Notes: generated by a model not told the origin, from the letters alone. A stretch of DNA of 64,000 nucleotides from Nitrososphaerota archaeon (GCA_041641305.1 JBEPYN010000003.1:1-64000); one strand, 5' to 3'; shown: positions 10,136 through 20,651, counted from the stretch's first letter. Program-made: numbers and translations.

Positions 10136-10148
10136 AAACGCTTATATC
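10136..10148 (+). promoter_or_regulatory. BRE/TATA promoter of the pilin-like operon
   Basis: AAACGCTTATATC; TATA 31 nt before an in-frame TTG at 10173; 12/13 match to 15431-15443. Confidence 0.55.
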
Positions 10149-10172
10149 AATGAAATCCAGGTGAATGGCCAG

Positions 10173-11363
10173 TTGAGCTCCCCCAGCGTGGCGACACCCC
10201 GTAAGGGCCGGTACTCTGTTAGGAGACGCGGTGACATGACGGTGGGGGCGCTTGTTCTCCTCGCGGTAACCTTAGCCATTGGCTTTTTCATATGGGGGTT
10301 TTCGCTGAGCTGGATGGGGATTTCATTCAACGATTTATCCAATAGCCTTAATCGATCTGTTTTGCAGGTTAAGACCTCTGCACAGCTTTCTTTTGAGGCG
10401 ATAAACTACACCACTTCTGGAAGAATTGCTATAGTGAGAAACGTTGCTGATGTTCCAGTTACGTTGACGAGGGTTGAGATTGTTACGCCTGAGGGTTATC
10501 TGCGTGCTTTTTATCCATCCGCTGGATTCGCGAACTTGTCAAAGCTCATGCCGAGGCAAAATGTTACCTTAACAGATGTAGAGATACCACTTTGCGGTGT
10601 TTGTGTTGGTGGGGAAAGGCTGAAGCTTAGGGTGTGGTATGTTGCTTCTGATTTGTTTGACGAGGCGAACCCTGTGTTCTCAGCTGATGAGATGAAGTAC
10701 GTTGAGACCATTTTTATCTATCCCGGCGGTTCTCCACCCTCTGCTTGCCAGATTCCAGAGGGGCAGAAGTGGATGTTCATTGATGTGATTGACCCTATTA
10801 CGTTCACGGATTCAGGCCGCATACCGGATTCCCCCAATAATCGTTTGTTTGTGAGGGCGCCCTTCGCATCTCATTCTGAGGATGTTTTGCTCAACGTGGT
10901 TGTCGTAAATGCCTCTGGAGCTGTGGGAGGTGTTTCAGGCATGGTGCCATCAATTGGGAACAGTATTGTGGAGTTGACGGGGCCGATAGGTGGGTTTGTT
11001 GTTCCTCTTAACATAACTGTTGACGCTTCTGGGTTTGAGGTGGTTCAGAGGTTCTGGCGGCTGGGCGGCATACCATACAGAGCTCATGCATCGGGTGTGC
11101 AGCTCTGGTGGTCATTTGACACGGCGACGAATCAGAGGTTGCTTAACGTTGTTATGGTTGAACTCGGTGTCAACGACCTTGTAGGAGGTAGTTTCGTCAT
11201 TACCCTGAGGCTTAAAGACTGTGTCGGAAACACGATATACATCGCCTCTAATACTGTGAATTTGCCTCGTGGAATTTTCAGTGATTCGGTGTTTTTCGAC
11301 GTATCTCCGCCGGTGCGGATGGATGACGTGTATGAGATTATTGTTGAGGTGGATCAGGCGTGA
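10173..11363 (+). CDS. Large pilin-like protein with class III signal peptide
   Basis: RRRG|DMTVGALVLLAVTLAIGFFIWG; VRNVADVPV pilin-like strand; start probably TTG 10173 (track gives 10161). Confidence 0.7.
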   Translation: MSSPSVATPRKGRYSVRRRGDMTVGALVLLAVTLAIGFFIWGFSLSWMGISFNDLSNSLNRSVLQVKTSAQLSFEAINYTTSGRIAIVRNVADVPVTLTRVEIVTPEGYLRAFYPSAGFANLSKLMPRQNVTLTDVEIPLCGVCVGGERLKLRVWYVASDLFDEANPVFSADEMKYVETIFIYPGGSPPSACQIPEGQKWMFIDVIDPITFTDSGRIPDSPNNRLFVRAPFASHSEDVLLNVVVVNASGAVGGVSGMVPSIGNSIVELTGPIGGFVVPLNITVDASGFEVVQRFWRLGGIPYRAHASGVQLWWSFDTATNQRLLNVVMVELGVNDLVGGSFVITLRLKDCVGNTIYIASNTVNLPRGIFSDSVFFDVSPPVRMDDVYEIIVEVDQA

Positions 11364-19046: not shown

Positions 19047-19049
19047 AGC

Positions 19050-20651
19050 TCAGTCCCCCACCTTTTTTCCAGAGTTTAAAGTCAAATTCGCCACTACAAC
19101 TTCAGGGTCTTTGGACAAAATGGAGTCGAAGTAGTGAATGTTGAACATCTCCACAAGTCTTCTCGCCTCCTCATGCAGCGGGAAGAAGCTCAGCAGGTAA
19201 AACTCGGCATCAGTAATATCAAGCTTAGTGGTCATAATCTTCATGATGTTGCTCACCTGTTCTTCTTTTCTGTCTGTCTTCAGAAACACAAGCAGAACCC
19301 GTGCCTGGTCATTTTTTCTAAACATCAAGTCAATTCGGTGAGGCAGATTAGAGGTCCCCATGACTTTAACATTCCTCTCAACAACGAAGCCTCGTGACTT
19401 AAGTTTCTCGGCGACCAGTTTGATTGGTTTATTTGATTCTAATGTTTTTGAAAGCTTGTCTATGTTTACTTGGTATTTGTAGAAGGTTTTCAACTCGAGG
19501 TCGTTGTAGTCAAACAGTGTTCCGCATGTGATGCATTTGAATGAGACGTAGGGCTCGTTGTTAACCTCATTGCATTGGTAGCACATAAACAGGCTTGAGT
19601 GCACTTTGGCCACCTCATGTGTTAAACCCGACTCTGTTCCCTCACGTGTCACAGTGACTTCCGACCCGCAGCGCGGACACATGTACCGCATGCCCTCGAG
19701 AAACCTTTCCTCAGGTCCAAGGAAACCGCATGACTCATGCTGCAGTATCCTCTGCCGGCTTATGTTAGGTGATTTACATGATTTACAGCTTATGTTAAAC
19801 ATGACTTCGCAGCTGAAACACTGCGGGCATGCAATTCTCTTGAAACCGATCCCTCCAATTTTTATGATGCCTTTTTCCGTAAGTCTCTTCAGAATCAATG
19901 TCAACCTTGCCGTGTCGACGTCTATTTCATCCTGTAACACCGGGTAAAGCGCGCCGTCGGCTGATGCTGACTGCACCGGTAGAATTTCTGTTATTTTTTT
20001 CTGGTCTAGGAAGTCGAGTATATAGTCCTCGAGATCCTCGCTATCAATTTGTTTTGATGAGATGTATGGTACTTCCTGCTCTGCGTAGGTGTATAGTGTG
20101 GAGCTTGTGGCCTGTGTGGCCGGTTCGACAGTTAAATAGGTCAGGGGGGTAGCAGGTTCTTGACTGACAGATTGTTGTGAAACGGTTGGAGGCTCCACAT
20201 TGACCAGATTATCCGCGGGGACATTTGTTTGGCCTGCGGTCTCCTGTACGGGAGTTACCTCAACTTGTTCCACCGTCTGGGCTATCCGTTTCCTGCGAAA
20301 AGTGTTGAAAAGGCTGATCGCAACCGGTGGTGCAATGAAAGCGGCCAAACCAGTTAACCAAAATTCAAGAGCCCAGAAACCCCCTATCCAGTTTTGTAAA
20401 ATAGAGGCAGCCATGACACCCATAGCAGCTGCCACTATCATGATTGGCCACAACACAACCTCTAGCAACCGATAATGGATGAAGGTATAAACCACCGACA
20501 AGAGCAAGCCGCTTATAACAAAGACCATCGGCAAATTGGTCGGAAACAATCGTATCATGATGGGAAATAGGAGGGATGCGGCCACAAACCAGAGTGAAAA
20601 CACTAATCCAACTATTGACGCAGCCGCTATGACTTGACCAACCTGTCTCAA
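19050..20651 (-). CDS. Membrane-anchored TackOD1-like multi-Zn-finger protein with C-terminal restriction-endonuclease-like domain
   Basis: 4 N-terminal TM helices; Q/T/P linker; wHTH-like LILKRLTEKGII; CPQC, CKSC, HESCG, CPRC, CYQC, CITC; C-terminal RGFVVERNVKVMGTSNLPHRIDL. Confidence 0.65.
   Translation of the reverse strand: MRQVGQVIAAASIVGLVFSLWFVAASLLFPIMIRLFPTNLPMVFVISGLLLSVVYTFIHYRLLEVVLWPIMIVAAAMGVMAASILQNWIGGFWALEFWLTGLAAFIAPPVAISLFNTFRRKRIAQTVEQVEVTPVQETAGQTNVPADNLVNVEPPTVSQQSVSQEPATPLTYLTVEPATQATSSTLYTYAEQEVPYISSKQIDSEDLEDYILDFLDQKKITEILPVQSASADGALYPVLQDEIDVDTARLTLILKRLTEKGIIKIGGIGFKRIACPQCFSCEVMFNISCKSCKSPNISRQRILQHESCGFLGPEERFLEGMRYMCPRCGSEVTVTREGTESGLTHEVAKVHSSLFMCYQCNEVNNEPYVSFKCITCGTLFDYNDLELKTFYKYQVNIDKLSKTLESNKPIKLVAEKLKSRGFVVERNVKVMGTSNLPHRIDLMFRKNDQARVLLVFLKTDRKEEQVSNIMKIMTTKLDITDAEFYLLSFFPLHEEARRLVEMFNIHYFDSILSKDPEVVVANLTLNSGKKVGD

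Follow-up and report, generated by a model that had tools for sequence, protein, structure and literature searches.

Introduction

Type IV pilus loci of the TACK archaea are known to include large minor-pilin or adhesin components as well as components resembling surface layer (S-layer) proteins, and to evolve in a fast and modular manner (Makarova et al., 2016; PMC4858521). Large signal-peptide proteins regarded as minor pilins or adhesins have been described beside ATPase-TadC pairs in Thermoproteales, Desulfurococcales and Thaumarchaea (PMC4858521), and arCOG06883, which is the same family as TackOD1, has already been reported in thaumarchaeal pilus loci (PMC4858521, PMC5847659). TackOD1 was named by Galperin et al. 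(2018; PMC5847659), who called its function obscure; it is otherwise an output domain of response regulators, with regulators of the form REC, winged helix-turn-helix (wHTH) and TackOD1 on record, and the Zn-binding insert of the PriA helicase has eight similarly placed cysteines (PMC5847659). Here we describe a locus at positions 10161-20651 of a 64,000-nucleotide stretch of DNA (GCA_041641305.1 JBEPYN010000003.1:1-64000, referred to below as the window) from Candidatus Caldarchaeum, a hot-spring archaeon of the Nitrososphaerota whose genome is 1.66 Mb in size and 99% complete. The surface filament system that the locus probably encodes is type IV pilus-like, non-archaellar and specific to Caldarchaeales; in it, a pilin of 151 amino acids (aa) would form the filament, three large pilins would prime or cap it, and a TackOD1 protein would serve as a cytoplasmic accessory or regulator.

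The Caldarchaeales (formerly Aigarchaeota) are uncultured thermophiles, and we know of no experimental work on their surface structures; our literature search did not find their pili treated beyond gene lists. The account that follows joins genes, family assignments and synteny read directly from the genomes with folds that are predicted. To judge from its protein families, nothing about the machine itself, an archaeal assembly system for type IV filaments, is out of the ordinary; what is specific to this locus is the pilin-like cargo set, a doubly anchored protein within it (p566), a matched pair of threonine-rich chains and a long, membrane-anchored TackOD1 protein.

The locus and its assembly machine

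Eight intact genes lie within 10161-20651, arranged in four transcription units of alternating orientation; ORF (open reading frame) listing and translation place them where an earlier description made from the DNA alone, the sequence-only reading, had put them. The first unit, on the plus strand, comprises p400 (10161-11363, 400 aa as first called), p566 (11360-13060), the Thr-rich p168T (13057-13563) and p427 (13553-14836), with overlapping stop and start codons from gene to gene, the overlap being 4 bp at both the p400/p566 and the p566/p168T junctions. The pilin gene (14870-15325, minus strand) stands alone on its strand. The tadC gene (15469-17238, plus strand) converges with a 4-bp overlap on the ATPase gene (17235-19046, minus strand), and 3 nt separate the start of the latter from the end of the TackOD1 gene (19050-20651, minus strand). 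Two of the starts call for revision: p400 probably begins at the GTG at 10188, which yields 391 aa, matches the public gene call and has a TATA-like box at 10140, and for p427 the ATG at 13565 is more likely than the start at 13553. The TATA-like 9-mer GCTTATATC has only two copies in the window, one at 10140-10148, some 20-50 nt ahead of the two possible p400 starts, 10161 and 10188, and one at 15435-15443, about 25 nt upstream of tadC; the chance expectation is roughly 0.2 copies per window, and two copies were reached in 4 of 100 shuffles. A scan with bacterial-type promoter and terminator models, which are not applicable to archaea, returned background level only. That these are real genes and not chance ORFs is clear from their orthologues, which are found at 30-95% identity in conserved synteny in many genomes.

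The locus proteins were searched with Pfam and NCBIfam models. The 603-aa ATPase, of the FlaI/VirB11 family, matches T2SSE (PF00437, E 1.1e-33); its closest solved relatives are A. fulgidus GspE2 (2oap, 310 bits) and FlaI (4ii7, 231 bits), with both of which its Walker-type core aligns, and it carries a C-terminal extension of about 85 aa to which no Pfam family matched. In a tree with long branches and unreliable deeper placement, the three paralogues of the same genome fall outside its orthogroup. The 589-aa TadC platform protein is polytopic and has two T2SSF domains (PF00482, E 8.5e-21); it also matches the UpsF, BasF and ArlJ models, all far under their cut-offs. The 151-aa pilin belongs to the PilA family, with matches to Pilin_N and to TIGR02537 (the archaellin/pilin N-terminal domain), the latter above cut-off, a UpsA-like match at E 9.5e-9, and matches to the solved archaeal type IV pilins 8fk7, 8fjs and 8tib; it is the candidate major subunit. 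A prepilin peptidase (27322-28029, plus strand; Peptidase_A24 and Arc_PepC_II) is the sole A24 enzyme in the genome, and its neighbours, GdhA, Hpt and MiaB, are identical in the reference genome, which is without the pilus genes described here; it is therefore shared by all of the systems in the cell and not dedicated to one, and would act on this one in trans. The family matches thus bear out the view that a complete type IV pilus-type set of ATPase, TadC, pilins and A24 peptidase is at hand. The PibD-type peptidase that the sequence-only reading had noted at 27322 is indeed there, but it cannot be counted as part of the locus, being the only copy in the genome and common to the other three filament loci.

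The genome has four T2SSE ATPases in all. One is the ArlI (C1:284872-286539) of a canonical archaellum locus at C1:281.8-288 kb, which also has archaellin-, ArlH- and ArlJ-sized genes. This ArlI scores 643 bits against the FlaI equivalog model, above the cut-off of 550, whereas the ATPase of the present locus reaches 354 bits, and Pfam and NCBIfam searches found no ArlF/G homology at the locus; the non-archaellar character that had been proposed for the system is thereby upheld. The same is true of its separation from the Ups pilus and the bindosome, as the equivalog models fall far short for UpsA (35.5 bits, cut-off 130), UpsB (15.6, cut-off 70), UpsF (85.7, cut-off 400), BasE (227, cut-off 1000) and BasF (80.6, cut-off 1300), and neither sugar-binding proteins nor substrate-binding protein domains were detected in the locus. 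A second pilus locus of the genome has the order ATPase-TackOD1-TadC in a single operon and is the one that the 2016 census lists for the reference Ca. Caldiarchaeum subterraneum. A third pilus-like locus (G000:C2:383600-394200) encodes an ATPase with an N-terminal Zn-ribbon, a TadC of 612 aa, and secreted proteins of 782 and 1110 aa.

The large class III signal-peptide proteins

The proteins p400, p566 and p427 each carry a class III signal peptide, and the motif is kept across their orthologues: [RK]G|[DE]T.[IV]G followed by a hydrophobic helix in p400 (14 clusters), [KR]G|[LVY]S[DE] in p566, and SG|[VI]SAVVGT within a strongly conserved leader-helix region in p427. The p400 and p566 families align with an hhalign probability of 99.7% (E 1.6e-26, 351 columns), and the two are paralogues over the whole globular region, a relationship reported here for the first time. 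The relation of p427 to these two is confined to the pilin-type N-terminus. In p566 the signal peptide is followed by a globular region of about 370 aa, a Thr tract of about 155 aa, and a C-terminal hydrophobic segment with a basic tail; tract and C-terminal anchor are retained in all 15 orthologous clusters (552-640 aa), and the protein is thus predicted to be anchored at both ends in all orthologues, which is also a new observation. The AlphaFold2 model of p427 (predicted local distance difference test, pLDDT, 83) has an N-terminal helix of 48 residues (11-58) followed by three β-sandwich domains, a predicted architecture of pilin helix plus three outer modules likewise new here. The alignment of this family has conserved Cys pairs, and its N-terminal 60 aa are far more conserved than the outer domains. 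Foldseek searches with the model returned generic tandem Ig-like domains only (integrin legs, complement MG domains) and no informative relative.

The named members of the p400 and p566 families (14 and 15 clusters) all come from Caldarchaeum or "Nitrososphaerota" metagenome-assembled genomes (MAGs). Among 5.8 billion proteins p427 has 26 related clusters, and an exhaustive profile search of 1.84 billion proteins recovered about 25 full-length representatives, together with about 100 shorter proteins that share only its N-terminal ~150 residues; the full-length relatives were found in Caldarchaeales-type genomes only. Pfam and NCBIfam have no family for p400, p566, p168T or p427, and the same libraries gave no pilin family for ten distant p427-like proteins either. 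A search of the ESM Atlas with p566 produced pilin-like leads below threshold only, and when the genome's three remaining type IV filament loci were searched with family hidden Markov models (HMMs), no paralogues of the large pilins came up. It is plausible that the large class III proteins are minor pilins or adhesins.

The Thr tract of p566 (window 12494-12958) is about 50% Thr, with invariant Thr residues alternating with variable ones (TxTxT) at fixed alignment positions. Its neighbour p168T, of 168 aa and 45% Thr, is secreted by way of a Sec-type signal, mostly ending A/G-x-A/G|Q in the orthologues, and not by a class III leader; in orthologous loci its gene always lies between p566 and p427. 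Across 19 loci from seven lineages (L020-L025, L065-L081), the p566 tract ranges from 154 to 229 aa and that of the secreted neighbour from 150 to 213 aa, and the two lengths covary closely, with a Pearson r of 0.976 over loci, 0.975 over lineage means and 0.945 when the longest lineage is left out, values that relatedness inflates and that rest on only seven lineages. This covariation, not previously described, argues that the two tracts are length-matched, either pairing with each other or spanning the same distance. In three orthologous loci (L021 12083-17053, L022 14450-17815 and L059, from genome G017, 6476-10447) a GT2 glycosyltransferase and an FkbM-type methyltransferase are encoded between the pilin and p427, along with membrane proteins of 440-456 aa that match no Pfam family. 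The GT2 and FkbM genes, absent from this window, are possible glycosylation genes for pilus proteins, and their insertion in the orthologous loci is consistent with glycosylated surface subunits.

The membrane-anchored TackOD1 protein

The 533-aa product of the gene at 19050-20651 matches TackOD1 (PF18551) with 93.9 bits against a cut-off of 32 (E 1.2e-26). It is a long form of the family, with four N-terminal transmembrane (TM) helices, a low-complexity linker rich in Pro, Gln and Thr, a wHTH, a multi-Zn-ribbon region and a C-terminal α/β domain; orthologues of this form measure 520-610 aa, and the soluble paralogues, of 300-390 aa, share its cytoplasmic part only. Eleven Cys are invariant in the alignment and the His H305 is nearly so. 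AlphaFold2 models residues 196-533 (pLDDT 85.5) as a winged-helix-like module, for which there is a weak MarR-like hint, a β-rich Zn-ribbon region and the C-terminal α/β domain. Foldseek matches the last of these to NucS, AF1548 and Can2, with E values from 8e-6 (NucS/EndoMS) to 1e-4, and VIA-align scores the nuclease folds at Z 10-12, with 11.6 for AF1548, about 11 for Can2/Card1 and 10.8 for Bax1, and receiver-like folds at about 9. The D...(D/E)xK catalytic motif of such nucleases is not conserved in the homologue alignment, where β3 reads FLK, FIK, LFT, FLQ or FTR; the only invariant positions are G421 and H438, with G432, S434 and D478 close to invariance. Since the canonical catalytic residues are not conserved, the domain is read as a binding module and not as a nuclease. 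That TackOD1 proteins of this kind would end in a nuclease-like fold without the canonical catalytic motif is a structural prediction made here for the first time.

The association of this protein with pilus genes is regular. Wherever the long TackOD1 gene and the orthologous ATPase gene were both found, no more than about 15 kb separates them, though they are not always adjacent, and of the three TackOD1 genes in the present genome two stand directly beside a pilus ATPase; the third, a soluble paralogue, is at C1:599 kb, away from pilus genes. The sequence-only reading spoke of a dedicated membrane Zn-finger protein. This overstates the case, as the family is known from thaumarchaeal pilus loci, and both this genome and the reference genome encode a member of it in their second pilus locus.

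Conservation, gain and loss of the cassette

The order p400-p566-ThrRich-p427 recurs together with orthologous ATPase, TadC and pilin in Caldarchaeum, in Calditenuis and in two further families, down to 30-37% identity. For the ATPase, orthologue identity is 95% in another C. subterraneum MAG, falls to about 70% throughout the sampled genomes of one genus in a different family, and lies at 50-58% in still other families. Full-length p427 orthologues are present, patchily, in about one third of the 75 genomes of the class, and some genomes have extra pairs of small and large pilins between the pilin and p427. Thaumarchaeal loci with ATPases at 50-58% identity likewise contain TackOD1, TadC and PilA pilins. 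They also have large class III proteins of other kinds, and family HMMs at E<0.01 found no homology between these (in L028 and L031) and the large pilins described here. In L031 (9857-13225), at G017:C1:872392-874926 and at similar sites of family f2, T2SSE ATPase ORFs of 940-1120 aa occur in which the match to the query is split by about 430 aa, possibly an intein inside a pilus ATPase paralogue.

Within the genus the locus behaves as a discrete cassette (10055-20756, 10.7 kb) that is present in some genomes and absent from others. Alignment by blastn with the reference-type genome G009 covers window 5001-10054 and 20757-29993 at 81-82% identity, with 45 bp between the two blocks in G009, so that relative to the reference C. 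subterraneum genome the cassette is a clean 10.7-kb indel. Of the 11 other genomes of the genus, only two, G003 and G010, yielded the ATPase orthologue. In a third, G011, at the syntenic site between the VTT/DedA gene and the small gene o82 (L058, G011:C1:112000-131000, 8096-10171), pseudogene fragments of p400, p566 and TackOD1 remain, the middle having been deleted; because these decayed remnants stand at the same site, the cassette is ancestral there and has been lost by deletion, repeatedly so within the genus, and is not a recent insertion. An unrelated gene of 431 aa lies between the remnants and o82 in G011. A mobile element or integrated virus was considered and set aside: no integrase, att-like flanking repeats or border tRNA were seen, and the G011 site reflects decay in situ and not excision.

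Two small genes on the minus strand at the border of the cassette (window 9526-10016) are kept in genomes without it; the product of one is 81 aa long, with two TM helices and a Zn-ribbon at its C-terminus, and that of the other is an 82-aa protein that contains Cys. Beyond them, a plus-strand ORF of 819 aa (7062-9521) has a HAD phosphatase domain and a PIN-ATPase-KH (PINA-like) unit in one frame, with an 829-aa counterpart in G011.

Proposed function and alternative explanations

The filament system that we favour would work as follows. The single A24 peptidase would remove the short class III leaders, and the FlaI/VirB11-type ATPase, docked on TadC, would drive the subunits from the membrane into the filament, both steps being those of the type IV filament paradigm. 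The bulk subunit would be the 151-aa PilA-type pilin. As minor pilins, p400, p566 and p427 may contribute their N-terminal helices to an initiation or tip complex that displays the β-sandwich modules for adhesion, with p566 tethered to the membrane by its C-terminal anchor through the ~155-aa Thr-rich stalk, and this stalk, matched in length with the co-encoded secreted Thr-rich protein, probably associating with it. The long TackOD1 protein would be a membrane-tethered, cytoplasm-facing accessory or regulatory subunit of the ATPase-TadC platform. Adhesion or cell-cell contact in hot-spring biofilms is the likely role of the system. This interpretation is supported by the core families, the sole A24 peptidase, the likeness to solved pilins, the class III motifs with their helices and the p427 model, and further by the conserved operon in company with ATPase, TadC and pilin, the link of TackOD1 with pili, the GCTTATATC box common to two of the units and the covariation of the Thr tracts. 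Several observations weigh on the other side. A C-terminal membrane anchor, as in p566, is not what one would expect of a subunit carried on the tip of a long pilus; the wHTH and modelled nuclease-like fold of TackOD1 could mean nucleic-acid binding and not docking on the platform; the large proteins have no homology detectable with Pfam or NCBIfam to any characterised minor pilin or adhesin; and the locus is dispensable, since searches with p427 and the ATPase did not find it in eight of the 11 other genomes of the genus, and found remnants only in G011.

In the main rival explanation the large pilin-like proteins, instead of capping a long pilus, might form a tethered pseudopilus or a base or stalk complex, that is, a short stalk spanning the periplasm, a stator or collar like ArlF/ArlG, or a bindosome-type pseudopilus, with the β-sandwich modules held at the S-layer and the p566 tail and p168T acting as a ruler-like tether from membrane to S-layer. 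A pilin helix at one end of p566 and a TM segment with basic tail at the other in 15 of 15 clusters, Thr tracts matched across lineages, and a conserved p427 N-terminus of the kind expected of a machine-proximal part all suit such a structure, as does the prediction for Caldarchaeales of colossal canopy-type S-layer proteins that are held by a TM helix and a basic tail (bioRxiv 10.64898/2026.08.21.746120). The conservation in the locus of a small PilA-type pilin, like those of solved long pili, speaks for a filament and against a stalk, and neither substrate-binding proteins nor homology to ArlF/G were detected in the family searches; we hold this explanation to be credible yet unlikely. An elaboration that unites several of these features, and that we put forward as speculation of slightly lower standing, is that p566 represents a novel type of pilin with an anchor at either end, whose Thr tract (TxT, ~155-230 aa) might pair along its full length with the secreted Thr-rich protein; the two chains would then make up a β-rich, probably glycosylated stalk of a fixed length, tethering a pilin-headed adhesin complex or pilus base across the wide pseudo-periplasm of Caldarchaeales, with assembly gated from the cytoplasm by a membrane-anchored TackOD1 whose nuclease fold is catalytically dead.

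Two further alternatives turn on TackOD1 itself. It might be a membrane-bound wHTH regulator in the style of ToxR or CadC, standing outside the machine and switching the divergent pilus operons on and off, as the modelled wHTH with its MarR-like hint, the existence of REC-wHTH-TackOD1 regulators, the TATA-region motif common to the p400 and tadC promoters and the occurrence of soluble paralogues distant from pilus genes would allow. Two of the three genes are immediate neighbours of a pilus ATPase gene, and one of these shares an operon with ATPase and tadC and lies between them; such positions are typical of structural or accessory subunits, and we hold the regulator to be improbable. Still less probable in our estimation is a pilus for DNA exchange or uptake, in which the filament would make cell-cell contact or capture DNA and TackOD1, with its wHTH, PriA-like Zn-ribbons and PD-(D/E)xK-like domain, would handle nucleic acid at the cytoplasmic face. 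Type IV pili do serve DNA exchange and uptake, in Sulfolobales (Ups) and in bacteria. The nuclease-type fold suggested by Foldseek and VIA-align, the wHTH modelled ahead of the Zn-ribbons and the eight cysteines of the PriA insert (Galperin et al., PMC5847659) point the same way, but the alignment does not conserve the D...(D/E)xK residues, the scores of receiver-like folds come close (Z ~9), TackOD1 is otherwise known from response regulators, and family searches found no Ced-like or Com-like DNA translocase genes in the locus.

The eight-gene conserved set offers a defined target for metaproteomes and for electron cryo-tomography of enrichments. With a membrane-anchored form that has an additional nuclease-like domain, the known connection of TackOD1 with type IV pili is widened, which provides a handle on the function of TackOD1, and the doubly anchored pilin with its length-matched Thr-rich pair supplies structural hypotheses on how filaments may be anchored or spaced relative to the S-layer. 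The polymorphism of presence and absence in a single genus, one genome of which keeps decaying remnants, shows that pilus cassettes of this sort come and go quickly.

Comparison with known systems

By the position of its TackOD1 gene beside pilus ATPase and tadC, the locus belongs with the arCOG06883/TackOD1-associated pilus loci of the Nitrososphaerota. The clade-4 thaumarchaeal and aigarchaeal loci with arCOG06883 (Makarova, Koonin & Albers 2016; PMC4858521) have the same FlaI-family ATPase, TadC, Zn-ribbon protein, PilA pilin and large signal-peptide proteins, and the loci of Conexivisphaerales and Nitrososphaerales with ATPases at 50-58% identity have TackOD1 and TadC as neighbours, as here. 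Among these systems is the second pilus locus of Ca. Caldiarchaeum subterraneum, with ATPase, arCOG06883 and TadC in that order and a PilA pilin. The differences lie in the form of TackOD1, which is long here (~520-610 aa with four TM helices and a linker) and soluble in theirs (~300-370 aa), in the p400/p566 and p427 families and the Thr-rich pair, which family HMMs did not detect in thaumarchaeal loci, and in gene order, tadC converging here on the ATPase gene. The cassette is absent from the reference genome analysed in the 2016 census (PMC4858521).

The Thermoproteales and Desulfurococcales systems of clades 4A, 4B, 4E and 4G (PMC4858521) share with the present one an ATPase/TadC pair, a PilA that is often encoded apart, several signal-peptide proteins of 400-700 aa, and a protein with a C-terminal TM anchor; conserved cysteines are present as well. 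No sequence relation to them was detected, and the MinD/FleN and TFIIB partners of those systems are missing here; p566, in contrast, joins a pilin-type N-terminus and a C-terminal anchor in one chain, and the Thr-rich pair is specific to this type of locus. The Aap, Ups and Bas systems of Sulfolobales are machines of the same type, and the pilin here resembles UpsA and the solved Sulfolobales and Pyrobaculum pilins, but those systems have only small PilA-type pilins, and genes of the UpsX/AapX type and for sugar-binding proteins were not found in this locus. For the Aap and Epd pili, what was observed is a generic likeness of the pilin to solved archaeal pilins. With the tip complexes of bacterial type IV pili and type II secretion systems (PilVWX/GspHIJK with PilY1/PilC) there is a functional analogy, in that co-transcribed larger pilin-like proteins prime assembly and carry adhesive modules (PMC13533445); there is no homology, the machine here being of the archaeal A24/TadC type, with no secretin, retraction ATPase or PilY1-like β-propeller. 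The layout that the sequence-only reading called atypical is so in its lineage-specific large pilins, its Thr-rich pair and its long TackOD1, and is not a new kind of machine, arCOG06883 and large minor pilins having been catalogued before. As TackOD1 in pilus loci and large minor pilins or adhesins have both been described already, the layout is best understood as a lineage-specific variant of a catalogued style.

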